From Candidatus Daviesbacteria bacterium (lineage in GTDB: Bacteria; Patescibacteriota; Microgenomatia; Daviesbacterales; UBA10151), in contig JACPDA010000004.1 in the NCBI GenBank assembly GCA_016184225.1, positions 70,800 to 134,799 of the forward strand: 64,000 bases of DNA, in the 5' to 3' direction. Shown here one piece after another: positions 35,960 to 52,152 of this stretch. A program made the position numbers and the translations under genes. The stretch's first letter is position 1. Each line of letters opens with the position of its first letter. Under the pieces are notes generated by a model, which had not been told where the DNA came from, ran no database searches, and was given only the letters and a program-made list of their open reading frames with translations.

Positions 35960-35971
35960 TAATAACTACCC

Positions 35972-36002
35972 ACTAATCACTAAAAAACCCGCCGGAAAGC
36001 GG
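35972..36002 (-). terminator. rho-independent terminator after ssrA
   Basis: Minus strand reads AAAACCCGCTTTCCGGCGGGTTTTTT: a GC stem followed by a U-tract. Confidence 0.55.
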
Positions 36003-36910: not shown

Positions 36911-36984
36911 CAGTCTTCAGCTTTCAGCTATCAGACTTGTTTTATTATACCAGTCTGATAGCTGACGACTGATAGCTGACGACT
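36907..36984. repeat. TCAG/CTGA-rich palindromic intergenic repeat (copy 2 of 3), spanning exactly from the upstream stop codon to the smpB start codon
   Basis: cagctatcagact / agtctgatagctg form a perfect 13-bp inverted repeat around the loop tgttttattatac; extended imperfect arms. Confidence 0.5.
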
Positions 36985-38827
36985 ATTTCAAGTCTGCTTG
37001 AAATATCTTACTTCCCTCCAGAAGATATACTTTCTTCCCTTTCTCATCAACCACCAAATCCGTGGCTGTGGCAAACTTATTGCCAGTAATTTGCCCTTTG
37101 TAGCTGCCTGTTTTGGTTAAAATCAACAGCCGGGAATTGCCGGAATCCAAAAGGTATAAATTATCTACGTCTGATGAAGTAAACAAACTTTTTGGGTCTT
37201 TAACCCCTGAGGGAAGTCCCGCATAGGAAAAATTGTCCTTATCCCCTTTGGTAAACCTTAAAATCTCTCCCCCGCTCTTGAGCACATAAACAGAGGACTC
37301 AATCTGCATCCTTAAGGCATTACTAAAATCAGCCGTAGCACCCTTACTTAAATATTCCCTTTTATCAGAATAGCCATCAGATGTAGCGACATATTTCCAA
37401 ATCTGTCCGGAATTCAAAAGGTAAACATTGCTGCCAAAGCCATAAAGGTCTTTAATTTCTCCCCAACCACTATCCTGTTTAGCAACAGTGCTCAGTTTGG
37501 AATTTGTGGTATCAATTCTTAAAATCCCCTTATCTACCGAATAAATAAAGGCCAGTCCGCCGTTTAATGAGGCAAAACTGGCTTCGCCTAGTTGTTCTGA
37601 CCCTGCCAAAATCTGGTTGCTCTTTTTCGCTATATCCACCACTGCTAAAGTCTTAACAGCCGGGTCCAGAAGCAGTAGTTTATCCCCCGACAGGCTCATC
37701 TGGGTAGCGCGGAAGTTTTTCTTAACTAAGTCCATATCCAAAAATAGCGGAAAATCAGAAACAACAGACTCTTGTAAAATCGCGGAGGATTCCTGTTCTA
37801 TTTGATTTTTAAAGTTTTGGGCCTCTCCGTCATTTGGCTTTAAAGTTAAGGCAGATTTTACCTTGTCTTTGGCCGAATCGAGCTTCTTTTTGGCTTCAAG
37901 AGGATTTAAACTGGTTAATCCTTTAGCAGCATTAAAATCATCCTTTGCCTCTTGCAATGTTTGGATAAACTGCAACGCCTTAGCCCGGTCACGGCCGGAC
38001 TTATACTGATACCCAACACCCAAGGCAATAATGATAATTAAGACAACCGCCACTACTAACCTCCCCCTGCCACTTCTGGGAAAATGTGTTCCAATCTTCT
38101 TGAGCAAATTCAACACCTGATTTAAAATATCTTTAAAAACTAAAACCCGCGATTTTTTTGGAAAATCTTCACCAATTTCTTGATCTGTTTGAACTGTTTG
38201 ACCATTATCTTCCGAAGGAAGAGGGGAAATTTCCAAATTCTCTCCGCCAGCTGGCGGACTAATTTCCACAATCAAACCAGCTAAGCTTTCGTTCTCTGCG
38301 CTCGAAGCGCCAATTTTACTCCCCAGTTCTTCTTCGAATGTTTCTATAGGCAAATTTAAAGATTTCTCAAGTTCGTCCCCTAAAAGGGTTATTAAGCTTC
38401 TGGTAGAAAGCAGTATTTTATCCCCATCCTGCAAAAATCCGGAAATCAGTTGTGAGGGTGTACCGACTGACAAAAGGGCTGATAGCGTATCCGCTCGTTT
38501 TAGGTAAACTTCAACATTGCCTTTACCGATAAGATAGAGTGCCTTCCCGGAAATAGCTGCCAAACACAAATCAAATTCAGCTCCCTCCGGAATTTTTTTC
38601 TCTGCTTCCTTAAAAGTGGCATTTAATTTCTCAGCCATTGTCCCTTCAAACTCAAAATAGAAATCTTCCAGCTCGGATAAAATTTGCCTGCCGGAAGTAA
38701 AAGCATCGTCGGAGGTAAGCTCTAAAACCGCCAGCAGCGAGTTGTCGTCTCCCCTAATGGAGGATGCTACCTGGGCGGCTTTTTGATCGGTATTTAAGCC
38801 AATAACTTGAGCTATTTTAAGCTTCAT
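36983..38827 (-). CDS. hypothetical membrane protein (N-terminal cytoplasmic domain, one TM, C-terminal repeat-rich extracellular domain)
   Basis: 614 aa; TM VVAVVLIIIIALGVGY; no catalytic motifs recognised. Confidence 0.35.
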   Translation of the reverse strand: MKLKIAQVIGLNTDQKAAQVASSIRGDDNSLLAVLELTSDDAFTSGRQILSELEDFYFEFEGTMAEKLNATFKEAEKKIPEGAEFDLCLAAISGKALYLIGKGNVEVYLKRADTLSALLSVGTPSQLISGFLQDGDKILLSTRSLITLLGDELEKSLNLPIETFEEELGSKIGASSAENESLAGLIVEISPPAGGENLEISPLPSEDNGQTVQTDQEIGEDFPKKSRVLVFKDILNQVLNLLKKIGTHFPRSGRGRLVVAVVLIIIIALGVGYQYKSGRDRAKALQFIQTLQEAKDDFNAAKGLTSLNPLEAKKKLDSAKDKVKSALTLKPNDGEAQNFKNQIEQESSAILQESVVSDFPLFLDMDLVKKNFRATQMSLSGDKLLLLDPAVKTLAVVDIAKKSNQILAGSEQLGEASFASLNGGLAFIYSVDKGILRIDTTNSKLSTVAKQDSGWGEIKDLYGFGSNVYLLNSGQIWKYVATSDGYSDKREYLSKGATADFSNALRMQIESSVYVLKSGGEILRFTKGDKDNFSYAGLPSGVKDPKSLFTSSDVDNLYLLDSGNSRLLILTKTGSYKGQITGNKFATATDLVVDEKGKKVYLLEGSKIFQADLK

Positions 38828-39092: not shown

Positions 39093-39672
39093 AAATCTTA
39101 TGAGCTTCGTCTAAGATAAAATCCGCCACATGGTGCGGTCTTGATACCGAATGAAAATCAATGTTTCTGGTGGCTCCGGCTGTTTGGATAAAAACATTGC
39201 CGTAGTGAAAAATAGAGTTTAAGATACCGCCCATGGAAGATGAGGTATCTTCTATGTTTCTAAGGGGAGCTACATCAATATTTTTAAATAAAAGTGAGTG
39301 GAAATCCACATCAATGATATTTTTCTCGGTCACAATGTAAACATTAAAATACCAATGCAAAAAACCTTCAAAGGTAATTATTAAAACCAAAAGATAGTTA
39401 ATAATTAAAATCATTACAATAAAGGTTTGCGGAATAGTAGATAAGTTAAAATTGAAAAACCCTAAGATTTTCGGGACAAAAAACGGTCCCAAAAAAACTA
39501 CAATAGCCGCAGTAATCCAGCCTAAATTGGTAATTGGATGAGCCCGGAGTAAAAGAAGCACCTTCTCGTCAGGATCCTGGCCTTCAAAACAGAAATCTGT
39601 CGGATGCTCTAGGTAGGACGGGAACATTAAGGCAAGTATAGCACTTTTTGAGAGTCTAGTCGCTAGAGTCAA
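39055..39672 (-). CDS. membrane protein with bacterial PH (YdbT/DUF304-like) domain; likely internal start
   Basis: two TM helices followed by ...YFNVYIVTEKNIIDVDFHSLLFKNID... Confidence 0.45.
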   Translation of the reverse strand: MTLATRLSKSAILALMFPSYLEHPTDFCFEGQDPDEKVLLLLRAHPITNLGWITAAIVVFLGPFFVPKILGFFNFNLSTIPQTFIVMILIINYLLVLIITFEGFLHWYFNVYIVTEKNIIDVDFHSLLFKNIDVAPLRNIEDTSSSMGGILNSIFHYGNVFIQTAGATRNIDFHSVSRPHHVADFILDEAHKIYGRGRDAYHHPD

Positions 39673-39690
39673 GAATCAAGAATCAAGAAT
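39651..39690. repeat. CTAGAGTCAAGAGTC-family repeat followed by (AATCAAG)x3
   Basis: gagagtctagtcgctagagtcaagaatcaagaatcaagaat. Confidence 0.4.
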
Positions 39691-41363
39691 TATTTTTTCT
39701 CTATATTAAAGAAAGCAAAGCCGCTTTGAGGGATTGACAACCTACCCGGGGCGCGGATATTAAAGGCAGTCTTAAACTCCGAGCCGGAAAGTCTTACCTC
39801 CCCTTTGTCTGTTTGGAAAACAACCTCGCTGGTCGTTCCGTTCCCCTGCACCACCGTCACCGAACTTACGCTAGACGGTCCTCCGGCCTTCTCCCGCAAC
39901 TCGGCATGAGAGTAGGGGTTTCCTCCCCAGCAAGAAGTAGTAACAGGTGTTACCCGATCATCTCTGTATTTGGCCGCGTTAATAATATCCGCCACCTCTT
40001 CCCCTGAAAGCCAGGGGTTTGATCTTCCGCATTTATCACTTGACGGGCTATAGCCTTGTGTGTACCAAGCTTTATAGACCCAGGGGGACCCGCCTGCCTT
40101 ATCGTATGATTTGTCAACAAAACTGGATCCTCCGGAACCATCCGTCGTGTCCCAACCCATGGTAGTAGTAAACCCCCCGTGGGTTGAGGCATAATAAGTC
40201 ACCACATCTTCAATCACTTGTCCCCTGGTAGCATTCACCGCATCTTTCCAGGCCTGCGGAGGACTGTCTGACTTGGATTTAGAAAACACCTGGCAAGCTT
40301 CGGTGGTACAAATTGATTGGCCGTTTTGTTTATACCGGAAAGCATAAGTTCTGGCTGCTATGGCTTGAGCTTTAAGCGCTTCAGCATGCCAGTTTGAAGG
40401 CATCTCAGCTATGCCGTACAGATATTTTTCTTCAAAATTCATTGATCCGTACCCCGACACATTAATATCCCCTCCGGTATCTTTACCGACCGGCTCTTTA
40501 CCGTAGTAAGCCCGCAAAATTGCTTTGTAATCCTGACCTGACTGGGCTCTGCCCCTGGCTCCGTATTGACTCATCCCTTTTCTGTGGGTATAGCCACCAA
40601 AGGAAAAGACTGCAAAAGATCCCGAGGGAGCGGCTTCCCTAAAACCTTTAATGGAAGCATTGTAATCGTCTGCCAACTCGCTATCTCCGATACTGGCAGT
40701 AAACTGACCTGACCTGGCTGCTAAGATTTCCTGTTGTTTGGCAGAAAGCTCGGCAATTTTGCCTGATAAGTCAGATTGATATGCTTTAGCTTTTTTAATC
40801 TCTCCGCCCAAAAAGCCGGCATTCTTGTCTACCTGCTCTTGAAAAACGGCTAACTTAGCTTTGTCTTTTTCTAGGTTTTCTTTTTGGGTCAGCAAGTCTA
40901 CCACCTCGGCTGTAATTGAGGTAATAATTTGGCGGTCTTCCCGGGTGACGGATTGGCGGTAGGATAGCTCCCTGAATAAATCACCCGAGTGGACTGAGGA
41001 TAAAATGACCAGTAGTGGATCAGTCAGATATGAACGGATATAATAGGCCTTAACCCGCTGTTCCAGGAGCGCTTGCTGCAGGGCCAACTTATCTTCCCTG
41101 ATATCCAAATCTTTTTGTTTTTGCCTGATCTTAGCCGAAAGATTGTCTAAATTGGCTTGGATTTGGGCCAGCTGCAGTTTTAGGGAATTTAGTTGGCCTT
41201 CTAAAGGTTTAGTAGCTTTTACAGACAGCTCCCGGGCCTTATTTAGCTCATCGATCTGTTTTTGTAAATCTTCTATTTCACCAGCAAAGGTAGGGTATAG
41301 GGTATAGGGTATAGGGTATAGGAAAACAGATACTAAAAATAAAAAAAGAATAATTCTTTTCAT
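39690..41363 (-). CDS. SpoIID/LytB-domain peptidoglycan-remodelling protein with N-terminal coiled coil
   Basis: signal peptide; long coiled-coil region; SpoIID block ...GGYTHRKGMSQYGARGRA... and ICTTEACQVF. Confidence 0.65.
   Translation of the reverse strand: MKRIILFLFLVSVFLYPIPYTLYPTFAGEIEDLQKQIDELNKARELSVKATKPLEGQLNSLKLQLAQIQANLDNLSAKIRQKQKDLDIREDKLALQQALLEQRVKAYYIRSYLTDPLLVILSSVHSGDLFRELSYRQSVTREDRQIITSITAEVVDLLTQKENLEKDKAKLAVFQEQVDKNAGFLGGEIKKAKAYQSDLSGKIAELSAKQQEILAARSGQFTASIGDSELADDYNASIKGFREAAPSGSFAVFSFGGYTHRKGMSQYGARGRAQSGQDYKAILRAYYGKEPVGKDTGGDINVSGYGSMNFEEKYLYGIAEMPSNWHAEALKAQAIAARTYAFRYKQNGQSICTTEACQVFSKSKSDSPPQAWKDAVNATRGQVIEDVVTYYASTHGGFTTTMGWDTTDGSGGSSFVDKSYDKAGGSPWVYKAWYTQGYSPSSDKCGRSNPWLSGEEVADIINAAKYRDDRVTPVTTSCWGGNPYSHAELREKAGGPSSVSSVTVVQGNGTTSEVVFQTDKGEVRLSGSEFKTAFNIRAPGRLSIPQSGFAFFNIEKK
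41293..41316 (+). repeat. (GGGTATA)n heptamer repeat forming a canonical G3N4G3N4G3N4G3 quadruplex motif; encodes PYTLYPIPYTLYP in the signal peptide of the minus-strand gene
   Basis: GGGTATAGGGTATAGGGTATAGGG. Confidence 0.6.
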
Positions 41364-41415
41364 AAAGTGTCTTTAATTTTAGCAAAACTTATGCTGGCAT
41401 CGGCTTTCTAATAAA

Positions 41416-41439
41416 CCCTACCCCCTAATCCCTAGACCC
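41416..41439 (-). repeat. CCCTAA-type telomere-like heptamer repeat (G4 motif on minus strand) at the 3' end of a four-helix-bundle gene
   Basis: CCCTACCCCCTAATCCCTAGACCCT. Confidence 0.55.
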
Positions 41440-41795
41440 TAACTCTTTAAGCTACTAATAAGTTTATTTAACATCTTTTGAACTTCTGTAAGTAGATTAC
41501 TAATATCTTCGAAATCTTGAACATTTAAAAAATTTAATTCCTTGGCAATCAGTACTTGTGTTTCTAATTCAGCACCAGAAGCGAATGCAGTTCTTAGAAA
41601 CTGAAGGTATTCTTGCCTATAACCCCGTGAGTAACCTTCAGCTATATTCGAAGGGATTGATACCGCACATCGGCGCATTTGCGAAACTAAACCATATAAT
41701 TCTGACTTTGGAAATTTATTGGTGATTCTGAATATTTTAATTGATAAGTCAAAAGCTTTCTGCCAAACTGTCAGCTGTTGGTAGGAAGTTAGCAT
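41439..41795 (-). CDS. four-helix-bundle protein (23S rRNA IVS / Avd-like family)
   Basis: ...FPKSELYGLVSQMRRCAVSIPSNIAEGYSR... Confidence 0.7.
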   Translation of the reverse strand: MLTSYQQLTVWQKAFDLSIKIFRITNKFPKSELYGLVSQMRRCAVSIPSNIAEGYSRGYRQEYLQFLRTAFASGAELETQVLIAKELNFLNVQDFEDISNLLTEVQKMLNKLISSLKS

Positions 41796-41814
41796 AATCT
41801 TATTTTACACTAAA

Positions 41815-41838
41815 CCCTAACCCCTAGTCCCTAAACCC
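41815..41838 (-). repeat. CCCTAAA-type telomere-like repeat (G4 motif on minus strand) in the spacer between the four-helix-bundle gene and the first pilin-domain gene
   Basis: CCCTAACCCCTAGTCCCTAAACCCTAAAA. Confidence 0.55.
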
Positions 41839-41861
41839 TAAAATGTGCTAATCTGAAATCA

Positions 41862-43031
41862 ATGTCCAAAATTTTTTCTTATAAACTAATTGTTGCAATC
41901 TTCTTTCTGTTTTTTGCATTCTCTTTGCTACCAGAGAGTACGATGGCTACCTTAAACGATTGCAGCTTTACATTCGACCCACCACAACCTAATACCTATA
42001 TGAAAGATCTGACCATCACTGTATCAAGCGCAGGACTACCCTCAAGCGGAGGTAACTATTTAATGGTAGTACAAGATCCACGTGATCATTGTGCTTATAC
42101 ATGGTCACGTGGATCGCTACCAAGTTATATTTTTGGAGGGATGGATGGAAACTGTTTCGGCTCGTATAGAGGTTGGCAAAACAGAGATTACCAGGTTTAT
42201 CTTTTCAATGGTGACGTAGATTATAAATCCGGTGCATTCGGATTTATCGGAAGAACAGATTTAAAACAAGCGATTTGCGTGGGGTCATTTCAAGTTGCAT
42301 TGAAATCAATACAAGACAGTTGCAAAGCTATCATTACTACAAAACCAATTGACCCCAATACTACAGTTCAACTAGAAGTAGAAAATATTCTACCAGACAA
42401 ATATAAAATTATTGTTGAGCCCAGAACCGCTGCTGCTACCCCTAAAAAAGAGTTCGAGGAAAAAATTGATACTTCCACTGCTCCCGCAAGATTCAATCTA
42501 GATACTTTTATTCCGGGCACTTATAGCGTTTCAATTTATAAAGATAGCAAGCTTCAGTGCGCTCAAGAATCTTTTCAGGTCGGCCCGATGGGAAGCGGAG
42601 AAGGCGGCAGAATAGTAGCTTATGCAGGAATAGATCAATGTAAACAAAAAGATGTGGCTTGTTCTCTTGCTGGAGGACAGCCAGTTACGGGTTGCAATGA
42701 TGCAGAGGTACCAGATCCAAATGATCCAAATAAAACCATACCTAACCCTAACCCGGGTATTGCTACTGCCATTGGCTGCATTCATACTAACCCGGTAGAA
42801 TTTACTAAAGACATCATGAAGTTTGTGCTGGGTATTTCCGGAGGCTTAGCATTTTTAATGATGCTTTTGGGGGCATTTCAAATACTGTCCTCTGCTGATA
42901 ATCCTGATACCTTGCATGCCGGCAGGGAAAGGTTAACCAGCGCAGTGATCGGCCTCCTGATAGTCATTTTTGCTATTTTACTATTGCAAATTATTGGAGT
43001 TGGTATACTGGATATACCTGGATTTAAATAG
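41862..43031 (+). CDS. secreted protein with large N-terminal extracellular domain fused to a C-terminal VirB2/TrbC-like pilin domain
   Basis: signal peptide; the C-terminus GISGGLAFLMMLLGAFQILSSADNPDTLHAGRERLTSAVIGLLIVIFAILLL matches the pilin paralogs downstream. Confidence 0.45.
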   Translation: MSKIFSYKLIVAIFFLFFAFSLLPESTMATLNDCSFTFDPPQPNTYMKDLTITVSSAGLPSSGGNYLMVVQDPRDHCAYTWSRGSLPSYIFGGMDGNCFGSYRGWQNRDYQVYLFNGDVDYKSGAFGFIGRTDLKQAICVGSFQVALKSIQDSCKAIITTKPIDPNTTVQLEVENILPDKYKIIVEPRTAAATPKKEFEEKIDTSTAPARFNLDTFIPGTYSVSIYKDSKLQCAQESFQVGPMGSGEGGRIVAYAGIDQCKQKDVACSLAGGQPVTGCNDAEVPDPNDPNKTIPNPNPGIATAIGCIHTNPVEFTKDIMKFVLGISGGLAFLMMLLGAFQILSSADNPDTLHAGRERLTSAVIGLLIVIFAILLLQIIGVGILDIPGFK

Positions 43032-43060
43032 AGTCAAGAGTCTAGAATCTAGAGTCTAGG
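43029..43060. repeat. CTAGAGTCAAGAGTC-family repeat filling the stop-to-start spacer upstream of the four-helix-bundle gene
   Basis: tagagtcaagagtctagaatctagagtctagg; an inverted partner lies at 43418-43448. Confidence 0.45.
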
Positions 43061-43063
43061 AAA

Positions 43064-43420
43064 ATGAGAAACAATAAAGGTTACAGAAAATTAATTGCTT
43101 GGCAGAAAGGTAACCTACTAGCTCACTTAATTTATGATGTCACAGCTAAATTCCCTAGAAATGAGCTTTTCGGATTAACTTCTCAGATGCGTCGGGCTGT
43201 TTTATCTGTTTGCGCGAATATAGCCGAGGGGTATAGCAGAAGTGGTTTAAAAGATCGCAAACATTTCTATCAAATGGCGGTTGCTTCTTTAACAGAACTG
43301 GAGTTCTTTATTGACTTTGCTTCTGAAAGAAAGTTTATAAACTCTTTCGATTATGAGAGAATATTAGATGTCCATACAGAAACAGCTAGAGTTCTAAGTG
43401 GTCTATTGAAATCCACTTGA
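43064..43420 (+). CDS. four-helix-bundle protein (23S rRNA IVS / Avd-like family), flanked by inverted repeats
   Basis: ...FPRNELFGLTSQMRRAVLSVCANIAEGYSR... Confidence 0.7.
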   Translation: MRNNKGYRKLIAWQKGNLLAHLIYDVTAKFPRNELFGLTSQMRRAVLSVCANIAEGYSRSGLKDRKHFYQMAVASLTELEFFIDFASERKFINSFDYERILDVHTETARVLSGLLKST

Positions 43421-43448
43421 CTCTAGACTCTAGCGACTAGTCACTAAC
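43418..43448. repeat. CTAGAGTCAAGAGTC-family repeat (inverted copy) filling the spacer downstream of the four-helix-bundle gene
   Basis: tgactctagactctagcgactagtcactaac. Confidence 0.45.
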
Positions 43449-43449
43449 T

Positions 43450-43749
43450 ATGATACCTGGTTTAAATGATATCTTTAAAGCCAATCCAGCACCTCAGTTT
43501 AAAAACTTAGGCGATCTTTTGTCCGGCCTTTTAAACATTATCCTTTTTGCTGCTGCCTTTGTGGCTTTTTTCTATATACTTTGGGGGGCATTTTCTTATA
43601 TTACGGCCCAAGGCAAAAAAGAAGATTTGGCCAAAGCCCGTTCCAGAATTACCTGGGCTATAATTGGACTGATTGTCGTCTTCCTGGCTTTTATTATTTC
43701 CCGGTTTATTGCCGAAGTATTTAAACCCAAAGGAGGATTGCCATTCTGA
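43450..43749 (+). CDS. VirB2/TrbC-like pilin paralog 1
   Basis: signal-like N-terminus, two TM helices, conserved loop ...ITAQGKKEDLAKARSRITWAIIGLIVVFLAF... Confidence 0.5.
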   Translation: MIPGLNDIFKANPAPQFKNLGDLLSGLLNIILFAAAFVAFFYILWGAFSYITAQGKKEDLAKARSRITWAIIGLIVVFLAFIISRFIAEVFKPKGGLPF

Positions 43750-43753
43750 AAAA

Positions 43754-43777
43754 GGGTACAGGGTACAGGGTACAGGG
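43754..43777 (+). repeat. (GGGTACA)n heptamer repeat, canonical G4 motif, in the intergenic spacer between pilin genes
   Basis: GGGTACAGGGTACAGGGTACAGGG. Confidence 0.6.
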
Positions 43778-43796
43778 TACAGTTAAGAAAGCTTTT

Positions 43797-44165
43797 TTGG
43801 CTATAGTATTTTTTGTTTTGCTATACTACATGCCCACCCCTGCTTATGCTGCCTGTGTTGAACCGGGGAAAGGCGTCCAGATTAGTGACTGTTTTGGCTT
43901 TGGGGATATCAAATCTGTGGGAGAGGCAACCAATAGAGGGATTCCTCATCTCTTTTCTCTGTTGGCAGCCATAGTGGTGGTATATTTTGTCTGGGGGGCT
44001 TTTAAGTTTATACTATCCAGAGGCAATAAAGAGGAAGTGGCAGAAGCCAGAGGAATGATTACCCATGCCATAGTAGGGTTTATATTACTAATCTTTGCCT
44101 TTTTGATCCTGCAGGCTTTGCTAAGTAGCTTATTTAAGATACAATTTAGTATTATAGGGGGTTAA
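43797..44165 (+). CDS. VirB2/TrbC-like pilin paralog 2
   Basis: ...ILSRGNKEEVAEARGMITHAIVGFILLIFAFLIL... Confidence 0.5.
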   Translation: MAIVFFVLLYYMPTPAYAACVEPGKGVQISDCFGFGDIKSVGEATNRGIPHLFSLLAAIVVVYFVWGAFKFILSRGNKEEVAEARGMITHAIVGFILLIFAFLILQALLSSLFKIQFSIIGG

Positions 44166-44172
44166 TTCATTT

Positions 44173-44703
44173 ATGAAAATTTTATTTACTAGTTTAACTC
44201 TTCTGTTTATTATTTTTTTTATTAACCCTGCTAGTGTATTCGCTACCGGTTCTCTGGGTGAAAACTCTCGCTGCTACTATCCTGCTATCTCAAACGGCGG
44301 TTGTAATGAAGATTTAGGCTTATTTTGTGAACCATCCCAAGACGATTCAACTCGAGGCGTCTGCAAAAAATCAACTGTGAAGCAGATTTTTGGCACTATC
44401 ACAGCCCCTTCTCCCCTGGCAGGTTTCCTGGCAAAAGACCCCACAGGCACAGGGGGGGCTATCAGCCAATTTTTATCTAATCTGGTAGCTTTATTCTATT
44501 CCCTGGCAGCCATAGTGGCACTTTTTATGTTTTTGTGGGCAGCATTTGAATGGATGACTTCCGGCGGGGAAAAAGAAAAAGTGGCTTCTGCCCGCAATAA
44601 AATTATCTACACCATTATCGGAATCATTCTCCTTGCCCTGGCTTTTGCCATTATCAGGATAGTGGGCCAATTTACCGGGTTTACATTCTTCAAGGGGGCT
44701 TGA
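44173..44703 (+). CDS. VirB2/TrbC-like pilin paralog 3 (with Cys-rich N-terminal extension)
   Basis: ...MTSGGEKEKVASARNKIIYTIIGIILLALAFAII... Confidence 0.5.
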   Translation: MKILFTSLTLLFIIFFINPASVFATGSLGENSRCYYPAISNGGCNEDLGLFCEPSQDDSTRGVCKKSTVKQIFGTITAPSPLAGFLAKDPTGTGGAISQFLSNLVALFYSLAAIVALFMFLWAAFEWMTSGGEKEKVASARNKIIYTIIGIILLALAFAIIRIVGQFTGFTFFKGA

Positions 44704-44739
44704 CAAGCGGTTTACTATATAGATATAGTTAAGCTACAG

Positions 44740-45144
44740 ATGAAAAAATTAATATTTCTTGGTTCTGCAACACTATCTCTTTTAACACCTATCCGGGCTT
44801 TTGCGCAATCTCCTGGTCCTGCTGTTCAAATAAATGCACCCGCAGTAGGATTTCAATCATTGTCAGACTTTATCGCCAAAGCTCTCGTGCTTGTTTTCAC
44901 AGTGGGCGCTTTTTTGGTTTTGATTATGTTAATTATCGGGGCGTATGAGTGGATCGCCTCCGGCGGGGATAAAGAAAATGTGGCTAAAGCCCGCAACAGA
45001 ATTATTAATGCTTTAATTGGCTTGATAGTCTTGGCTGTTGCTTTTGCTCTGGTAAGACTCCTCGGCCAATTTACCGGATTAACCTTAACCAACTTGAGTA
45101 TCCCTGGCCCAGCAACAGGCACTCCCAACCCCAGCGTACTCTAA
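44740..45144 (+). CDS. VirB2/TrbC-like pilin paralog 4
   Basis: ...IASGGDKENVAKARNRIINALIGLIVLAVAFAL... Confidence 0.5.
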   Translation: MKKLIFLGSATLSLLTPIRAFAQSPGPAVQINAPAVGFQSLSDFIAKALVLVFTVGAFLVLIMLIIGAYEWIASGGDKENVAKARNRIINALIGLIVLAVAFALVRLLGQFTGLTLTNLSIPGPATGTPNPSVL

Positions 45145-45164
45145 ACTTCTTCATCTGTTCGTCA

Positions 45165-45181
45165 TTGATCCCGATTAAATC
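45165..45181. repeat. perfect palindrome TCCCGATTAAATCGGGA (hairpin); the same core recurs at 53283-53297
   Basis: cccgattaaatcggg occurs in the spacers at 45.17 kb and 53.29 kb. Confidence 0.4.
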
Positions 45182-45220
45182 GGGATTGATCTTCAAAACT
45201 ATTAGTGGTAATTTTAAAGG

Positions 45221-45559
45221 ATGGGGCCGGATCCGGCAGGTTTATCTGAACTTGAAAATCTCTTTGGCAATGTAATCTCTGTGATGGTGGCTCTGGGATT
45301 TATCGCCATGTTGGTTTTATTAATCATGGCCGGGTTTAAGTACTTAACTTCCGGCGGGGAACCCAAAGCCCTGCAAGCTGCCCACCACACCCTGGCCTGG
45401 GCTATTTTAGGGGTGTTGCTGATGATAGTAGCCTGGATACTTTTACAGCTAATCCAGGCCTTTACCGGGATTAATGTTACGGTATTTGATATAAAAACCT
45501 TGTGCAAAGATGCCACAGGAGCCTTGTTGTTCTGTCCATCACCCAGCCCTGGACCTTAA
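45221..45559 (+). CDS. VirB2/TrbC-like pilin paralog 5
   Basis: ...LTSGGEPKALQAAHHTLAWAILGVLLMIVAWIL... Confidence 0.5.
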   Translation: MGPDPAGLSELENLFGNVISVMVALGFIAMLVLLIMAGFKYLTSGGEPKALQAAHHTLAWAILGVLLMIVAWILLQLIQAFTGINVTVFDIKTLCKDATGALLFCPSPSPGP

Positions 45560-45600: not shown

Positions 45601-47373
45601 ATGCTGCCAAAGTTTATAGTTTATAGTTTATCGTTTATCGTTTTGATACTATTTACCATCCATCCTGCTCTTGCCCAAACCCCTTCGACAAGCTCAGGGC
45701 ACGCTGCTATCCCTTCTGCTTCTTCCTCTACACCCTATACCCTATACCCTATACCCTCATCTGTCTCCCCCACTTCTCCCCTTTATACCGACTTGTTGGT
45801 AAATAACCTCTTCCACTCTTTCTCCTGCCTGGCAATCGGCCAATCTGTTATTGGCCAGCCGTGTTTAACCTACCAGGTAACTAAAAATGCCCAGGGTGCC
45901 ATCCAAAGCATACCGGTACTTTCTTCAATAAACACCTCAGGCGGAACGCTGGGGGCTGTCACCTCTGTCATAGGGATGCTCTATACTAACCCGCCGGTCA
46001 GGACTGCTGATTATCTGGCCAGTGTCGGGACTGATTTGGGAATTGTCAAGCAAGTCCATGCCCAAGGAGTAGGGGGTTCAGGAGCTGCCGTACTAAACCC
46101 CATCTTAAAGCTTTGGCAAGTTTCCAGAAATATCTCCTATGTCATATTAATCATTATCTTTTTGATCATTGGCCTGATGGTCATGTTCAGGAATAAAATC
46201 AATCCTCAAACCGTTATTACCGCCCAAACTGCCCTGCCTGGATTAGTCATCGGCCTGGTGATGATTACCTTCTCCTACTTCTTTGCCGGTCTGATTTCGG
46301 ATTCTGCCTTTATTGGTACAAATTTAGTTGGTTATTATTTTTCTGCCGCTCAAAAACAATCTACCCCTCAAAATGTCGTTGAAAGTATGCAAAATCAAAA
46401 TGTGTTAAGTATTTTCAGTCCCTTTATCGGCATCGTTAATAAAGAAAACGCGGCAGACCTGATCAGTTCCATATGGACGAGTTTAAACCAAGATACTCGA
46501 AATTTTCTTACCGGCATTTCGGCGTTTCTGGTGGGTCAAATGACTTCACCAGTTGGTAGTTTATTCGGACCGGTCGGGCAGATGGTGGTAGGTTTTGGAA
46601 CATCAACCGTGACATTGGCAAACCCAACAGGAATCGTTGGTGTTCTACTGTGGATAATGGCTACCCTAATTTTGCTTTACTCCATGTTTAAATTGTTACT
46701 ACGCCTGATTAATAACTATCTCACTATTATCTTTCTGACATTTACTGCCCCTTTTCAACTTTTAATCGCTGCTTTACCGGGTAGGCAGGGCATGGCCACT
46801 AATTGGATCTTAAATATGCTGGCCAATATTTTGGCCTTTCCGGCTGTTTTGGCTGTGCTTTATTTTGTGGCTTATCTGATGGGGCCGGTTTTTATGAATC
46901 TACATTGTACCACTCCCTGTCCCTTTAAAATTACACAAGTTAACCAAATAAACAGTAATGATCTTGTGCCGAATGCATATGCAGAAGGGGCTTCAATTGT
47001 TGATAGCCAGACTTTTCCTTTATTTGGAGGTATGAACTTGGATTTCATGAGACTGCTTTTGGCATTTGGAGCTTTAATAGCATTACCATCAATACCGGAC
47101 GTACTGGGTCGGGCCATTGGTAAAATGGGTGAAACTGGACAGCTGATCGGCCAGGAAATTGGCGGTAGTGTCGGCCAAGGCAGAGGTTATTTTGGCCAAG
47201 CCAGCCGGGCACCGGGAGCCCTAGCCCAACAGGTTGGGCCAGTTATAAACCAACCTGGGTATATGATGGAGGGTGGCAAAGTAGTCAGAGTCTACGATCC
47301 TAGATTTGGTGGAAGTTTTGGAATATTCAGTAAATTTGGAAGTTGGCGTAGGCCAAAGGGAACTCCTCCGTAA
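45601..47373 (+). CDS. polytopic membrane protein, TrbL/VirB6-like
   Basis: 590 aa with at least 6 TM helices, directly following the pilin array; the N-terminal region contains TPYTLYPIP encoded by (CCCTATA)n. Confidence 0.45.
   Translation: MLPKFIVYSLSFIVLILFTIHPALAQTPSTSSGHAAIPSASSSTPYTLYPIPSSVSPTSPLYTDLLVNNLFHSFSCLAIGQSVIGQPCLTYQVTKNAQGAIQSIPVLSSINTSGGTLGAVTSVIGMLYTNPPVRTADYLASVGTDLGIVKQVHAQGVGGSGAAVLNPILKLWQVSRNISYVILIIIFLIIGLMVMFRNKINPQTVITAQTALPGLVIGLVMITFSYFFAGLISDSAFIGTNLVGYYFSAAQKQSTPQNVVESMQNQNVLSIFSPFIGIVNKENAADLISSIWTSLNQDTRNFLTGISAFLVGQMTSPVGSLFGPVGQMVVGFGTSTVTLANPTGIVGVLLWIMATLILLYSMFKLLLRLINNYLTIIFLTFTAPFQLLIAALPGRQGMATNWILNMLANILAFPAVLAVLYFVAYLMGPVFMNLHCTTPCPFKITQVNQINSNDLVPNAYAEGASIVDSQTFPLFGGMNLDFMRLLLAFGALIALPSIPDVLGRAIGKMGETGQLIGQEIGGSVGQGRGYFGQASRAPGALAQQVGPVINQPGYMMEGGKVVRVYDPRFGGSFGIFSKFGSWRRPKGTPP
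45733..45756 (-). repeat. (CCCTATA)n heptamer repeat, canonical G4 motif on the minus strand, inside the TrbL-like gene
   Basis: CCCTATACCCTATACCCTATACCC. Confidence 0.6.
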
Positions 47374-47383: not shown

Positions 47384-50300
47384 CTACACATATGTGGGAG
47401 GGGGGACTTGTCCAGGAAGACGAGGATTGTGACTGGGGGTCATTTTCCTCCACACTTCAGTCCAGATGCTTGATCCTTCTCTATACGAACTAGGGGTAGT
47501 GATTAATCTAATAATATCTCTAATCTCTGTATTAGCCTCTATACCACCCTGTTCCCTCTCAATATCATCTCTTTTTTCACCCTTGCCTTTTTCCGATATT
47601 AACCATTCCAAAAATCTTAAAGCAAATTTTTCGTTTTCTTCATACCCTGCACCGGAAGATAAAGCTTGTCTGTCTTCTCCCAACAATTTCTCCGTTGCAG
47701 CAATGATTGGTTCAAATCTCTTGAAAGTAGTCTCCTGCAAGTAGTTAACAATGTTTTCTCTCCATAAATTGTAAGTAGCAACATTGTCATTTTCTTTATT
47801 AGTAAGATTTTTCAGAAAATCATCCAATTTAAACTTAATCCCTCCGAACACCTTCCATAAACTATTAGCATCCACTAAGGGCTTTTCCAAAAAGCCCCAC
47901 AGTTTCTTCAGACCTCCCCCTTGCTCCTCTGCTAGACTCCCTTCCTCTCTTCCCCTAATACTAAGCATGTCTTTGAATCTTTGGGCATACATGGTCAGCG
48001 CCGGATTATCAACAGACTCCATCCCATTAGCAGTTGTATTAACGCTTAAAGCCAAATCCAAAATACTGTCAAAATCCATCTCTCTGGAAAGAGAACCCAA
48101 ACTAAACGGCATGGCGTGTACCAAATCCGCCGCTCTTGGCATGGTTCTTCGCAAATTCGTATACCAAAAAGCCTTCAGGTGTTGCAACCTTTTTACTCCC
48201 CAATTCATGCCTTGAAAACCATAATCAATCCTGTCTGCTGAAAAAGGCAGCATTCTAGGATCTGGATCTTTCCCCGGTTGCGGGAGCCCGTGGGTAGCTT
48301 CAAAATAAGCCAGACGTTCCAGTTCAGCATCAAAGGCCCTGGAGTCCTCAATCATTTGGGTCAAGTTATCAATCCTTTGTTGGGTTGTGTCGCCTTTAAT
48401 CCCTTCCCTTCCCTTTAGTCCTAATCTTCTAAGAATCTTTTGTATAGGTATTAGTCTTCCCTTGGCCACCTGCTCCAACACCACCTCATTATTAATCTGG
48501 CTCTCGGAGGATTTATAATCTGCCAAAAAGTTATTCATCACCGGTTTAAGAGAGTTCATTTTAATAATGTCTTCAAACTTAGCCGCCCCAATTTTTGCAG
48601 TATGACCATGCTGCCTGAGTTCTGTTACTGCTGCGCTAAAAGCCTGCCATTCTTCTTTTGTTAAACCTGTTTCTTGGAAACCTTCTTGCAATTCAAACTC
48701 AATCATTTTACCGCCCTGGATAGAAACTTTAAATTTACGAGGAGCCTTCGCTCTATTCAAACCTGCATCTTTCCATCCTCGGATCCATTTTTTACTTCTC
48801 CACCTAATTAATGCCAAATTATCTGCTACGCCATCCTGTTTCCAATTTTCTTTAGCTTTTTGCAAGATAGCGTATTTGTAGAATAAAACCGCATCTTGTA
48901 CACTAATATAATCACCATTATCCATCACAATGGATGGGGCGCCAAGCATGGCTGACTCACCAAAAACATTCATCACTTGCTCCGCCACTTCAAAGGCACT
49001 TGTGGCTTTTCTTTCTATCTCCTCATATATACTCTGCACCCTAGCTAATTCACTTCTCGCTCCCCTGAAGCCCTCTAAATCCTCAAAGGTAGACTTGTCC
49101 TTTGATTCCTCCACTCTCTTTAAAACTTCTTGGTATTTCTTTTCAGCTTGATCTAATATCGCCTTCGGAGACTCTCTGCGGTCAAAACAAGATAAAAATT
49201 CATCCAAAGAAGAAACATTTGTTAACTTCTCTCTGTTTTGACTTTGCTCTTTTTCATCTACACCTTTAAGTTTGTATTGCATTAGTAAACCTATCATCTG
49301 TTCTTTAAGTAATTCTCTGATGTATTTATGTGTTGTATCATCATCAAAAAGCTGGCCTTTAAAGCCTTGCGGCCTGAAATAAAGTCGGAACTTTGGATCC
49401 ATAAATAGATACAAGGCGATCCCTGTTAAACCGTCACTCATAGCAGGCAGTCTTCTTAATTTTTCAACACCCCTAATCCGCAACCTCTGTTCCATATAAG
49501 AACTAAACAGTTCCATCTGCAGATTCCGTCCGGCCCAATCCAGGATAAAAAAGTCAATCTTGTTGGTAACCGAATCTTCAATCTGTTCCATCATTTTTTT
49601 TGCATCTTTTTCGGAAACCTTCTCGCTTCTTTGCAAATCAACCGATTTCTCTCTGATCGCCTTCAGCAACATTTCCATTCTCTGCTGTATGGTGTTAAGA
49701 TCAAAGGTGGTAGCACTTTGGATAATATTGTCAGCTGCTTGATCTGCGCCCAATTCTATTTGTTGTCTATTAGTCCCTAACAACCTAATCTTGTAATAGG
49801 ATTCTTCCTGGTAGAGCGGTTCCATTCCCTCTTCCAGAACCTGCTGTTCTCTTTGTTGCGCTATTGCCCTCTCTACTCCACGAACATTCCATTCACCTAA
49901 AATCCTGGCCGGTAAAGTAGCCCCTGAAAGGGAATCTATTATTTGGGCTTGAGCTCTCCGGACAAATTCTATTCTAATACCTTGTAGGGCTTCCTTAGCT
50001 GCAGGAGGAAGCATTCCTCTTCTTTGAAGGCGATCCCAACGAGCAGCATTCTCAACAAACTGTGGCTTGCTCTCATTCAACAGGGAATCAAAATATTCTA
50101 AAATCTCATCTTCGACTTCAGCAAAAGTTTTGCGGGGAAGGCGTCCCGGAGACCCTGTCAACATATCCATCTGGCTAACCTCCCGATGAGACACCATACT
50201 GTTGCGCCATTCTATATACTTATGCTCTAATCTTTCCTCCAAATCCCCAAAAATACCTCTTCTTCTTGCTTCATGGAAATACCAACTTAATCCTTTCTGT

Positions 50301-51283
50301 GCCATCTCCAGATTGGCTGGTACAAAATTTGGATCATTAGTTTCGCTTAGAAATTGTTGTTTTTGAAACTCAGCCAGTTGCAGAGAAAAAGTAGCTGCAA
50401 CTGATCCTGGTTCTGTAATAGTAGGTTCGGCATCTCTTAATAGTATCTCTTCTAACTCTTTTTCCCATTTTTCCGGCTCTGCCCGGCGCTGTTTCACTTT
50501 TTTTTCTTGTTTTTCTCTTTGGGCTACCGCTAACTTCTCTTTTTCCTGTTTTATCCCGTCTTCTGACTTCTTTCTCACGTCCAGAAAGTCTGGGCTAGTC
50601 ATAGCCGTAATTTGTTGTTCCAATTCAGATGTTTCTGTTTTAAGTTTACCCTCTGCTTCCTGCTTTTTTCTCCAGTCTTTGTCAGAATATAAAGCTTTTA
50701 GCCCATCTTCCTTTAAAGTGTTGCTAAGTCTTCTTGATTCCTCTCTTGTTGCATCAAAGTTATCTAATAACTGCTGTAATACCTGTTGTTTTTCCGGAGG
50801 CTGTTTTTGTATTTCCTCTTCATCCTGCTGATTAAGCTTTCTTTCTAGCTTGATAATATCGTCTTCTAAACCAAGCAACTTACTTTTATGGGCATATTCT
50901 TTTAATACATCACATGCCTGTTGGTATGCACTTTTTATACTCTCTTCCTCTCTTTGCTCAGCTGACATGGTGTCTATTGTCTGTAAAATCTCGACAACAG
51001 CTGCGGGACTTTTCCCTTCGGGATTTAAGGGGTTTTCTACTGCTAGTTGATTTCTAATTTCCCGGATCACTTGTACTGATTCAGGAACTTGCCTGATCTC
51101 TGGTGGCTGGATATACCCTGCCTGTCGGACAGCTTCTACAGAAGCAGAGACACCCGGGGTATCTGCTGGTTGAGTATTTACTTTTTGCTCCGGAGGAATA
51201 TTAGGACCTGCTTGGGATCCTGCTAATACACCTTCTGATCCTGGACCGGGTGTTACTTCTGTCATAATTTCTATTCTTGCCAT
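47384..51283 (-). CDS. very large (1299 aa) highly charged coiled-coil-rich hypothetical protein embedded in the T4SS-like locus
   Basis: uninterrupted ORF with long E/K/Q-rich predicted helical stretches; no ATPase or relaxase motifs recognised. Confidence 0.4.
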   Translation of the reverse strand: MARIEIMTEVTPGPGSEGVLAGSQAGPNIPPEQKVNTQPADTPGVSASVEAVRQAGYIQPPEIRQVPESVQVIREIRNQLAVENPLNPEGKSPAAVVEILQTIDTMSAEQREEESIKSAYQQACDVLKEYAHKSKLLGLEDDIIKLERKLNQQDEEEIQKQPPEKQQVLQQLLDNFDATREESRRLSNTLKEDGLKALYSDKDWRKKQEAEGKLKTETSELEQQITAMTSPDFLDVRKKSEDGIKQEKEKLAVAQREKQEKKVKQRRAEPEKWEKELEEILLRDAEPTITEPGSVAATFSLQLAEFQKQQFLSETNDPNFVPANLEMAQKGLSWYFHEARRRGIFGDLEERLEHKYIEWRNSMVSHREVSQMDMLTGSPGRLPRKTFAEVEDEILEYFDSLLNESKPQFVENAARWDRLQRRGMLPPAAKEALQGIRIEFVRRAQAQIIDSLSGATLPARILGEWNVRGVERAIAQQREQQVLEEGMEPLYQEESYYKIRLLGTNRQQIELGADQAADNIIQSATTFDLNTIQQRMEMLLKAIREKSVDLQRSEKVSEKDAKKMMEQIEDSVTNKIDFFILDWAGRNLQMELFSSYMEQRLRIRGVEKLRRLPAMSDGLTGIALYLFMDPKFRLYFRPQGFKGQLFDDDTTHKYIRELLKEQMIGLLMQYKLKGVDEKEQSQNREKLTNVSSLDEFLSCFDRRESPKAILDQAEKKYQEVLKRVEESKDKSTFEDLEGFRGARSELARVQSIYEEIERKATSAFEVAEQVMNVFGESAMLGAPSIVMDNGDYISVQDAVLFYKYAILQKAKENWKQDGVADNLALIRWRSKKWIRGWKDAGLNRAKAPRKFKVSIQGGKMIEFELQEGFQETGLTKEEWQAFSAAVTELRQHGHTAKIGAAKFEDIIKMNSLKPVMNNFLADYKSSESQINNEVVLEQVAKGRLIPIQKILRRLGLKGREGIKGDTTQQRIDNLTQMIEDSRAFDAELERLAYFEATHGLPQPGKDPDPRMLPFSADRIDYGFQGMNWGVKRLQHLKAFWYTNLRRTMPRAADLVHAMPFSLGSLSREMDFDSILDLALSVNTTANGMESVDNPALTMYAQRFKDMLSIRGREEGSLAEEQGGGLKKLWGFLEKPLVDANSLWKVFGGIKFKLDDFLKNLTNKENDNVATYNLWRENIVNYLQETTFKRFEPIIAATEKLLGEDRQALSSGAGYEENEKFALRFLEWLISEKGKGEKRDDIEREQGGIEANTEIRDIIRLITTPSSYREGSSIWTEVWRKMTPSHNPRLPGQVPPPTYV

Positions 51284-51495
51284 AACTTCCTTTCTTCAGG
51301 AAATTCTACGGCTCACTCCAGCATAGAACCTCCAAAACTAAATGTCAAAACTCAAATCTCAAAAGTCAAAACTATAACTCAAATCTTAAAACTAAAAGTA
51401 GTTTACACTGAGAGATGCGTAAGTGCTTGATTAAATGCTGAGAAAATCCTGACGGATTAGTTCGTAGTAGGTAGTTAGTAGCAAGCAATGAGGGA

Positions 51496-52152
51496 TTATT
51501 TTTTAACCACACTCATCCCCAATTGCTTTGCTTTTTTTTTATAAAACTCTTTTAATTCCTTTAGCTCAAGCGGCTTTAGCATTTGGGGTAATGTTTCAAA
51601 AGTATCTGCCTTGAGAAAATCTATCCCCACCAAAAAAGGATCTGTTTTAAGCCTAAATTTAACTTCTGCCCCCCTCATTAAATCCCAAATCGTAAATTTT
51701 TGCAGCAGAAAATATAAATCCACAAAATCTTTTACCTCTGTCCTTTGCATGATGGTGCTAATTTTATTGACGGCGATGTCGAACAAGCTATCAATCGCAA
51801 CTAATTCAATCTTTGGCCCCGCTTCTATCCTTTTGTATGGATAATAACCAAAGTCTACTTTTAGCTTTTCCCCGTCGGCAAACTCTAAAAGATAAATTTT
51901 TACCACTTCCTGCTCTTTCAAAAGGAACTTAAAATTATTTTTTTTACCCCAGCCGGTTAATAAATTCAGAATGGATAAGTTGTCGAATGTCTCCTCTGAA
52001 AAGAAATCCAGATCTTCGGATAATCTGTGTTGCAGATAAACAGCAGAGAGGGCTGTACCGCCGGTAAAATAGAAATTCTCTTTTAAATAATCACTGCTTC
52101 TAAACTCATCAAAAATAATTCTTTGCTTGACCGTCAGATTCACGTTCCCCAT
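51496..52152 (-). CDS. AbiEii/AbiGii-family nucleotidyltransferase toxin (type IV TA)
   Basis: ...FTGGTALSAVYLQHRLSEDLDFFSEE... matches the AbiEii GGTAL...RxSxDxDF signature. Confidence 0.6.
   Translation of the reverse strand: MGNVNLTVKQRIIFDEFRSSDYLKENFYFTGGTALSAVYLQHRLSEDLDFFSEETFDNLSILNLLTGWGKKNNFKFLLKEQEVVKIYLLEFADGEKLKVDFGYYPYKRIEAGPKIELVAIDSLFDIAVNKISTIMQRTEVKDFVDLYFLLQKFTIWDLMRGAEVKFRLKTDPFLVGIDFLKADTFETLPQMLKPLELKELKEFYKKKAKQLGMSVVKK

Follow-up and report, generated by a model that had tools for sequence, protein, structure and literature searches.

Six paralogous genes of a type IV secretion system (T4SS) pilin family are encoded at positions 41862-45559 of a 64,000-nucleotide stretch of the genome of an ultra-small bacterium, Candidatus Daviesbacteria (contig JACPDA010000004.1; hereafter the window). 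We refer to them as P1 to P6, in their order on the plus strand. The genes are part of a chromosomal type IV secretion locus of this organism, and their number, order and orthology are maintained across the loci of related species, where the most variable element is the large N-terminal ectodomain of P1. We propose, with moderate confidence, that P1 to P6 are ancient and non-redundant PF18895 subunits of the relaxase-less chromosomal T4SS of the Patescibacteria, that they probably contribute to a single surface structure, and that P1 is probably the host-binding subunit of that structure.

Six paralogues share a two-helix module and match the T4SS pilin family

The region from 41862 to 45559 contains seven plus-strand open reading frames (ORFs), six of which end in a common module of approximately 70 residues. 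Alignment of the six C-termini and their hydropathy indicate that this module comprises a hydrophobic helix, a polar loop and a second hydrophobic helix. The modules of P2 to P6 are 19-27% identical to that of P1, and only two alignment columns, a glycine and an alanine, are invariant. Each of the six proteins separately passed the whole-protein gathering score of the Pfam family PF18895 (T4SS_pilin; 26.6 bits), with scores of 31.7-45.2 bits and E-values of 1e-7 to 1e-11, matches that lie far beyond chance. The same family was matched by all 108 orthologous modules searched (108/108), and no other ORF in the window (minimum length, 45 aa) contains the module. These searches support the assignment of the six proteins as T4SS pilin-family paralogues.

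A preliminary description of this DNA had noted a C-terminal module common to six consecutive paralogues. The module is borne out by the alignment and by the PF18895 matches, and the hidden Markov model searches placed none of the six in an unrelated small membrane-protein family. All six genes are indeed on the plus strand, but they are not strictly consecutive, as a 118-aa gene of the 23S_rRNA_IVP family sits between P1 and P2. Similarly, the motif SGG(E/D)K that had been given as part of the module is literally present in P4-P6, but not in P1-P3, where the corresponding residues are SADNP, AQGKK and SRGNK.

By hydropathy, every module has two transmembrane (TM)-like segments, and the proteins differ mainly in what precedes them. 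P1, P3, P4 and P5 carry an additional N-terminal hydrophobic leader, whereas P2 and P6 are leaderless and consist of almost the module alone. P2 begins with a short N-tail, followed by TM1 (residues 26-44), the loop QGKKEDLAKARSR and TM2 (residues 70-88), and the C-terminal tail of P6 holds two Cys (95 and 105). The hydrophobic leader of P3 is short, and this protein has Cys at positions 20 and 32. In P4, a signal-peptide-like leader is followed by an ectodomain of approximately 70 residues with four Cys (34, 44, 52 and 64) and then by the module; this ectodomain corresponds to the Cys-rich insert that had been reported for one paralogue. The signal-peptide-like leader of P5 is MKKLIFLGSATLSLLTPIRAFA. 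As judged from the alignment, P2, P4 and P5 have a net basic inter-helix loop.

The six-gene set is maintained across related species

Using the conserved part of P1, 39 loci were retrieved from species-representative genomes, most of which are labelled Daviesbacteria, Microgenomates or Patescibacteria. The array was present in 38 of these, the remaining locus (L042) being a short Ignavibacteria fragment without pilin genes. Locus architecture is almost constant, with U614, a DUF5657 gene, U205 and a SpoIID gene on the minus strand, followed on the plus strand by the large pilin, five small pilins and a gene for a polytopic membrane protein that we call M590. The pilin at a given position was best matched to the window pilin of that same position in 36, 33, 31, 32, 30 and 29 loci for positions 1 to 6, respectively, with wide score margins. 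In a neighbour-joining tree of 207 modules, the sequences formed six clades and none was misplaced. Within an orthogroup, the median identity of modules from different genomes is 66% (5th-95th percentile, 53-78%), compared with a median of 27.5% for modules of different orthogroups within one genome.

Given the six clades and the high identity of orthologues relative to paralogues, the duplications that gave rise to the array are judged to be old. Each paralogue appears to be under its own purifying selection, with number and order stable, a pattern that would be expected of non-redundant subunits of one assembly rather than of a repertoire that expands and contracts. The preliminary description had taken the extensive paralogy as a sign of a variable surface structure, a reading that is at odds with a paralogue number and order that are fixed in 38 species loci. 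In other species, members of orthogroups 2, 3, 4 and 6 also bear large N-terminal extensions; as many as 668 aa precede the module in orthogroup 3, and up to 268 aa do so in orthogroup 4.

A hypervariable ectodomain in P1

An AlphaFold2 (AF2) model of P1, with a mean predicted local distance difference test score (pLDDT) of 79, comprises a signal-peptide-like helix (residues 2-21), two beta-sandwich domains (34-144 and 155-240), a low-confidence Cys/Pro-rich linker (approximately 250-298), a beta-hairpin that contains the invariant motif TAIGCIHT (299-308), and the two helices of the pilin module (311-343 and 348-382). The protein contains ten Cys. The first paralogue is thus fused to a large extracellular domain, as had been proposed; the 300-aa ectodomain originally described is more precisely a signal-peptide-like helix followed by approximately 280 residues of ectodomain and linker. 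When the whole model, whose beta-sandwich domains dominate the result, was compared with the PDB using Foldseek, P1 matched tandem immunoglobulin (Ig)/fibronectin type III (FN3) modules of adhesion and receptor proteins with E-values of approximately 1e-5. The predicted fold suggests that the ectodomain is a generic binding scaffold rather than a member of a specific family.

The two parts of P1 are conserved to very different degrees. The C-terminal third is 60-80% identical among homologues, with Cys 260, 267, 278 and 306 nearly invariant, while the N-terminal parts are of variable length (proteins of 289-602 aa) and mostly unalignable. Among 36 orthologues, the last 135 aa could be aligned in 630 of 630 species pairs, at a median identity of 66%, and some similarity between ectodomains was detected in only 48 of these pairs. 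When 32 homologues of P1 were searched against Pfam for recognised families in their ectodomains, only isolated matches were obtained. In the closest relative retrieved (L007), the flanking proteins are 58-91% identical to those of the window, and residues 1-260 of P1 have no counterpart. DNA homology to this locus is lost at 41281, at the 5' end of the SpoIID-like gene, and regained at 42752, within the Pro/Asn-rich linker of P1. The unrelated stretch of 1.47 kb (41281-42752, opposite 8842-10078 of L007) spans the ectodomain of P1 and a second 23S_rRNA_IVP gene (IVP1). A 9-nt tandem repeat (42714-42731) adjoins the point at which homology to L007 resumes.

These comparisons suggest that variability in this locus resides in the head that faces outward, chiefly the one on subunit 1, and not in the pilin modules or the number of genes. 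The notion of a variable surface structure can therefore be retained for the P1 ectodomain, which is hypervariable between species, but not in the sense in which pilins vary in Neisseria.

Relationship to VirB2/TrbC and to a Mycoplasma family

The proteins of the array had initially been called VirB2/TrbC-like. As an identification of T4SS pilins this is upheld, as P1-P6 all match PF18895 and the locus contains PrgI/VirB3-like and VirB4-like genes; the likeness is one of family name and context, and does not extend to demonstrable sequence homology. Among P1-P6, only P4 matched the TrbC family PF04956, at a sub-threshold 17.9 bits (E 0.0037; gathering cut-off, 27.9 bits). Eight of the 108 modules matched PF04956 at E<=0.05, which is comparable to the numbers obtained with the generic membrane families DctQ (21) and WLS-like_TM (20). 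When the 108 modules were compared using hhalign with an alignment of eight proteins annotated as VirB2/TrbC in MPF_T plasmid records, the probability was 0.6% over 12 columns, although the shallow, alphaproteobacterial VirB2 alignment leaves very remote homology possible; a VirB2 sequence had served solely as a probe to find these records. Profiles built from the six modules and from the 108 modules retrieved no solved pilin from among all PDB chains, returning membrane-protein noise only.

VirB2 and TraA are small two-helix proteins with a cleavable leader. The array proteins resemble VirB2, TrbC and TraA, of the T-pilus and F-pilus, in being small and T4SS-encoded and in having a pair of hydrophobic helices with a short polar or basic loop between them, and some of them likewise have a leader. 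They differ in that the inter-helix loop is longer, in that there are six paralogues rather than one major pilin, in that the host is a monoderm, and in that one member bears an N-terminal ectodomain of approximately 280 aa. A functional analogy can also be drawn to type IV pili and type II pseudopili, which are likewise built from co-encoded, divergent paralogues that share a hydrophobic assembly module. The minor pilins of type IV pili and of the type II secretion system are each conserved as their own orthologue, and some possess extra domains for adhesion at the tip. Type IV pilins nonetheless belong to an unrelated family and machine, have a single N-terminal helix and are processed by a prepilin peptidase.

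Besides PF18895, the only curated family that was consistently matched is NCBIfam NF045849 from Mycoplasma (Mbov_0395 family pilin-like conjugal transfer protein), an 80-position two-helix profile to which the modules aligned end to end. Matches at E<=1e-3 were obtained for 91 of the 108 modules (best, 1.4e-9). Within the window, E-values ranged from 6e-9 to 4e-3, and the best score, 35.4 bits for P2, did not reach the curated cut-off of 40. The array proteins are thus related to NF045849 without being members of it. By name, NF045849 belongs to an integrative conjugative element (ICE), whereas the present genes form a six-gene chromosomal set. Mycoplasma ICEs are found in wall-less monoderms, and the VirB4 of Patescibacteria is related to the same T4SS class, MPF-FATA (PMC12102498). 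The match to NF045849, together with this VirB4 relationship, suggests that the pilin-like subunit was inherited with a monoderm (MPF-FATA-type) system and was not borrowed from diderm systems; a 2025 survey of Patescibacteria left recruitment from Gram-negative systems open (PMC12102498). A literature search on the Mycoplasma locus tags returned nothing useful.

The array is an instance of published pilin arrays

Arrays of 2-11 VirB2-like pilin genes have been reported in Patescibacteria, especially in Microgenomatia (Quinonero-Coronel et al. 2025, PMC12102498). This survey used PF18895 and PF04956 on a dataset that includes Daviesbacteria genomes, and its authors propose that the arrays serve antigenic variation or adaptation to different hosts (PMC12102498). 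The window array is an instance of these arrays, and nothing about it differs in kind. Its members belong to PF18895 and are approximately 25% identical to one another, its neighbours include VirB4, PrgI/VirB3 and dnaA/dnaN, no relaxase was recognised in the ORFs scanned from 31 to 63 kb, and the class of this genome, Microgenomatia, is the one in which such arrays are most frequent. The survey defines an array as at least two pilin-profile genes in tandem or with one non-pilin gene between them, which describes six PF18895 genes interrupted by one 23S_rRNA_IVP gene. It further looks for virB4 within +/-20 coding sequences along with other components of the MPF-FATA type, and both are present here, the VirB4-like gene being the seventh large ORF past P6.

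A set of the same size is known from Southlakia, whose T4SS locus encodes six "structurally conserved but sequence-divergent" pilins, and a 2025 review has raised the possibility of a pilus in a monoderm (PMC12857230). The pilin series of the Southlakia cluster is essential as judged by transposon sequencing (Wang et al. 2023, PMC10633639). The function of the T4SS-like system is called completely unknown in the literature. Two details go beyond the published accounts, in those portions of them that were available to us: the six positional orthogroups that are kept across species, and the hypervariable Ig/FN3-like ectodomain carried on a conserved P1 neck and module. This pattern argues against the antigenic-variation reading offered in those accounts.

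Genes flanking the array

The PrgI/VirB3-like, VirB4-like, dnaN and dnaA genes all lie no more than 17 kb from the array (Table 1), in keeping with the chromosomal, relaxase-poor T4SS layout near the replication origin that has been described for Patescibacteria (PMC12102498). The ORFs scanned from 31 to 63 kb yielded no relaxase domain, in a search made without dedicated relaxase profiles and in which three large ORFs (614, 615 and 1299 aa) matched no domain. The SpoIID gene adjoins the first pilin in related loci, and its product is a candidate cell-wall-opening partner of the array. Genes upstream on the minus strand also include a 205-aa ORF, a DUF5657 protein and the 614-aa ORF. The 614-aa and 1299-aa proteins are conserved neighbours in related loci, homologues of the latter adjoining M590 in L006, L016, L019, L021, L026, L027 and L036.

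Nearly without exception, the gene after the sixth pilin in related loci is M590. Its homologues are 50-70% identical and lack a Pfam domain, and its hydropathy profile shows a leader and approximately six TM-like segments. Searches with M590 gave no match in Pfam or NCBIfam and no sequence match in the PDB, whether a single sequence or a 45-sequence profile was used. Its AF2 model (pLDDT 69) had no Foldseek match below an E-value of 0.4; R388 stalk chains appeared at ranks 10 and 13 of that list, with non-significant E-values of 1.3-1.7. VirB6 homologues are scarce in Microgenomatia, probably owing to sequence divergence (PMC12102498), and M590 is for this reason an obvious VirB6 candidate. 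Only its polytopic topology and conserved position speak for its candidacy as a VirB6-like platform.

Table 1. Features of the window, in window coordinates
Feature	Position	Strand	Description	Matches
Large serine recombinase ORF	33477-35033	+	runs into opposite-strand tRNA-Ser pair	
tRNA-Ser pair	34967-35141	-		
614-aa ORF	36983-38827	-	large ORF	no Pfam match
SpoIID-domain protein	39690-41363	-	with coiled-coil region; peptidoglycan-remodelling type; divergent from P1	PF08486 E 2.5e-19
IVP1	41439-41795	-	second 23S_rRNA_IVP gene, between SpoIID gene and P1	PF05635 133.5 bits
P1	41862-43031	+	389 aa; orthogroup 1 pilin	PF18895 31.9 bits
23S_rRNA_IVP gene	43064-43420	+	four-helix-bundle gene, 118 aa; non-pilin	PF05635 103.5 bits; bAvd 35.1 bits (below cut-off of 40)
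P2	43450-43749	+	99 aa; orthogroup 2 pilin	PF18895 41.9 bits; NF045849 E 6e-9
(AGGGTAC) x4.3 array	43753-43782	.	G4-capable; between P2 and P3	
P3	43797-44165	+	122 aa; TTG start; orthogroup 3 pilin	PF18895 40.4 bits
P4	44173-44703	+	176 aa; orthogroup 4 pilin	PF18895 45.2 bits; TrbC PF04956 17.9 bits (sub-threshold)
P5	44740-45144	+	134 aa; orthogroup 5 pilin	PF18895 41.5 bits
P6	45221-45559	+	112 aa; orthogroup 6 pilin	PF18895 31.7 bits
M590	45601-47373	+	polytopic membrane protein, 590 aa; directly after array	
1299-aa ORF	47384-51283	-	convergent with M590	no Pfam match
AbiEii toxin gene	51496-52152	-	between pilin part and VirB3/VirB4 part of locus	
PrgI (VirB3-like) membrane protein	53534-54664	+	C-terminal CarboxypepD_reg-like domain	PF12666 33.3 bits (cut-off 27)
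VirB4-like T4SS ATPase	55437-57197	+		TraG P-loop PF19044 E 3e-26; AAA_10; CagE_TrbE_VirB 19.0 bits (below cut-off of 21)
615-aa ORF	57213-59060	+	large ORF	no Pfam match
dnaN	59610-60710			
dnaA	61412-62779			
G4 motifs (G3N1-7)	41293-41316, 41416-41439, 41815-41838, 43754-43777, 45733-45756		five of the eight in the window	
Other G4-capable arrays (besides 43753-43782)	41291-41322, 41412-41442, 41810-41842, 45728-45757			
Heptamer arrays (examples)	3418-3449, 17325-17395, 35328-35357, 35914-35983, 39665-39690, 41291-41322, 43029-43059, 43753-43782, 45611-45643, 51333-51397, 53320-53404, 60755-60779			

Several further features of the region were noted. The serine recombinase ORF that runs into the tRNA-Ser pair and the AbiEii toxin gene that separates the pilin part from the VirB3/VirB4 part of the locus (Table 1) may be remnants of integrated elements. 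A 254-aa ORF upstream of virB4 was considered as a TrsD-type relative of the VirB4 N-terminus and rejected, as BLASTP against the VirB4-like protein of the window and a Pfam search were both null. A sigma-70-type site (TTGACA, 18 nt, TATAGT; 44700-44729) agrees with the consensus at 11 of 12 positions and lies 10 nt upstream of the start of P5, which could be separately and strongly expressed from it. This is the sole 11/12 promoter match in the array; the scan of the array for promoters and terminators gave total counts no higher than shuffled controls.

Heptamer arrays, G-quadruplex motifs and IVP genes

G-quadruplex (G4) motifs had been pointed out next to the pilin genes, and they are real: five of the eight in the window fall at 41.3-45.8 kb. 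All five are tandem heptamers (TAGGGTA, AGGGTAC, CCCTAAA), and belong to a much larger set of period-7 arrays of 4-5 copies, with many different unit sequences, that occur at gene boundaries throughout the window and account for 23 of 62 Tandem Repeats Finder rows. Near-perfect tandem arrays are of period 7 only and never arose in shuffled sequence, and in related Daviesbacteria loci (657 kb) 240 arrays have period 7, as opposed to 26 and 33 arrays for periods 6 and 8, respectively. Heptamer arrays are denser in the pilin region (0.59 vs 0.22 per kb), where the number of gene boundaries per kb is also higher. In relatives, G4 motifs occur at 0.12 per kb in the pilin region vs 0.02 per kb, and are absent from this region in 14 of 28 related loci. 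The suggested link between the G4 motifs and a variable structure does not hold, as the motifs are a subset of lineage-wide heptamer arrays and are missing from half of the loci. A literature search found no account of heptanucleotide repeats in the Candidate Phyla Radiation.

TAG occurs in many of the heptamer units, so that with approximately three copies every frame of one strand meets a stop codon. Heptamer arrays are also sites at which metagenomic contigs break; three independent contigs with an identical P1 differ by at most one mismatch and end inside arrays, and no copy-number variants were present in the three. A TAGGGTA/TACCCTA array lies within the 5' coding region of both the SpoIID-like gene (41291-41322, minus strand) and M590 (45728-45757, plus strand), where its in-frame products, YPIPYTLYPT and TPYTLYPIPS, come right after the leaders. 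Adding or losing a single 7-nt unit would change the reading frame, which could act as an on/off switch. The frame of P3 is open upstream of its TTG, through the AGGGTAC array and back to the P2 stop (43725-43800), and a Lys-Lys pair directly precedes the annotated start; the true start of P3 and the translation of this array are uncertain.

The 23S_rRNA_IVP genes are also associated with heptamers. The gene at 43064-43420 is bracketed by inverted TAGAGTC/GACTCTA arrays (43029-43059 and 43419-43433), and that at 41439-41795 by direct CCCTAAA-type arrays (41412-41442 and 41810-41842). In relatives, 15 of 17 IVP genes have a heptamer array at one or both ends. As an IVP gene separates the first two pilins in only roughly a quarter of the related loci (about 9 of about 35), it looks like a variable insertion at this position, and the IVP genes in general look like small mobile or variable cassettes.

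A proposed assembly and its alternatives

In the assembly that we propose, each protein would insert in the membrane with both ends outside and its loop, which is polar and in most cases basic, inside; four proteins would do so with a Sec-type leader, and the two leaderless proteins with short N-tails. A VirB4-driven machine would assemble the six into one heteromeric pilus or short stalk, on or near M590, with the divergently encoded SpoIID-type enzyme opening the wall. P1 would anchor its two Ig/FN3-like domains through the conserved Cys-rich neck and the pilin module, such that they are presented to the host surface. Between species these domains are either replaced or so diverged as to be unrecognisable, which makes P1 the likely subunit for binding the host surface and for setting partner specificity. 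A fixed, non-redundant set would also fit the essentiality of the Southlakia pilin series (PMC10633639).

Several considerations weigh against this proposal. A filament of this system has never been observed in any member of the Patescibacteria, with reviews treating one as no more than a possibility (PMC12857230), and monoderm T4SSs normally have no pili (PMC12102498). Homology to filament-forming VirB2/TrbC is not detectable at the level of sequence, and the label "pilin" is owed to the naming of the Pfam and NCBIfam families, to topology and to the structure-based annotation of others. Array size ranges from 2 to 11 genes across Patescibacteria (PMC12102498), and, as our loci were found through the P1 motif, the fixed set of six holds for a Daviesbacteria-like clade with P1. 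M590 could not be shown to be VirB6-like, since both sequence and fold searches were non-significant, and the differing P1 ectodomains may be either non-homologous or highly diverged Ig-like folds.

The main rival explanation, which we regard as possible if rather unlikely, is that the two-helix modules stay in the membrane as parts of a translocon or as anchors for ectodomains and form no filament, a role that would recall that of the small two-TM proteins in Gram-positive conjugation. This would agree with the general lack of pili among monoderm T4SSs (PMC12102498), with the lack of detectable homology to VirB2 or any solved pilin, and with the best curated relative being a membrane protein of a Mollicutes ICE; the long N-terminal extensions of orthogroups 3 and 4 would also be easier to accommodate on an anchor than in a packed filament. 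However, six separately conserved paralogues in fixed order suggest specific subunit contacts rather than generic anchors, and in P2 and P6, which are nearly the module alone, function must reside in the module itself. The structure-based annotation by others as pilins points in the same direction.

A decidedly less probable explanation is that the paralogues are interchangeable major pilins, a repertoire of alternatives for antigenic or host-range variation of the kind proposed for the VirB2 paralogues of Bartonella and Anaplasma, with G4 motifs promoting the switch. The strong divergence of the paralogues and the enrichment of G4 motifs in the region, both in the window and in relatives, are in keeping with it, and the published interpretation favours it (PMC12102498). 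Such a repertoire would be predicted to show lineage-specific gain, loss and homogenisation, whereas number, order and orthology are constant in the 38 species loci and the orthogroups remain 53-78% identical. The six genes are complete ORFs without silent or partial copies, and DNA matches between paralogues amount to only 141 nt (70% identity) and 60 nt (75%), which makes gene conversion implausible. With no shared paralogue DNA suited to gene conversion, and with half of the related loci lacking G4 motifs in the region, Neisseria-like G4 switching is not supported; the essentiality of the Southlakia series (PMC10633639) is a further point against interchangeable variants. We give virtually no credence to a diversity-generating retroelement (DGR), in which Avd-like four-helix-bundle genes flanking P1 would mark an element that mutagenises its ectodomain. 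Both flanking genes do give sub-threshold bAvd and DGR-Avd matches, and the ectodomain is indeed hypervariable between species, but both genes score below the bAvd cut-off and are far better matched as 23S_rRNA_IVP (103 and 133 bits). There is no template/variable repeat pair, the longest repeats in the array being the 141-nt paralogue match and short heptamer arrays, and no reverse-transcriptase domain in the ORFs scanned from 31 to 63 kb. IVP genes are absent from many related loci with divergent ectodomains, and P1 is identical in the three independent metagenomic contigs. The lack of a repeat pair and the IVP type of the flanking genes essentially refute this reading.

The assembly of six non-redundant subunits around a host-binding P1 can be extended in a direction that is speculative and, in our view, unlikely. 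The six orthogroups might constitute one hetero-oligomeric pilus or tip complex that predates the Daviesbacteria radiation and is possibly shared with the six-pilin set of Saccharibacteria. The head of orthogroup 1 would then be a cassette exchanged between lineages that determines the host, much like a phage receptor-binding protein, and the heptamer/G4 arrays and Pro/Asn-rich linker that bound 41281-42752 could be recombination joints.

Implications

Few systems for host interaction in the Candidate Phyla Radiation are both conserved and essential, and the T4SS-like machine is among them. A fixed set of six subunits shifts the useful experiments toward stoichiometry, co-assembly and the roles of single subunits, and the Ig-like head of subunit 1 provides a testable candidate determinant of host specificity in organisms that are mostly unculturable. 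Three points deserve to be taken further: the fixed architecture of six subunits, the apparently swappable head on subunit 1, and the link to the pilin-like proteins of Mollicutes ICEs.

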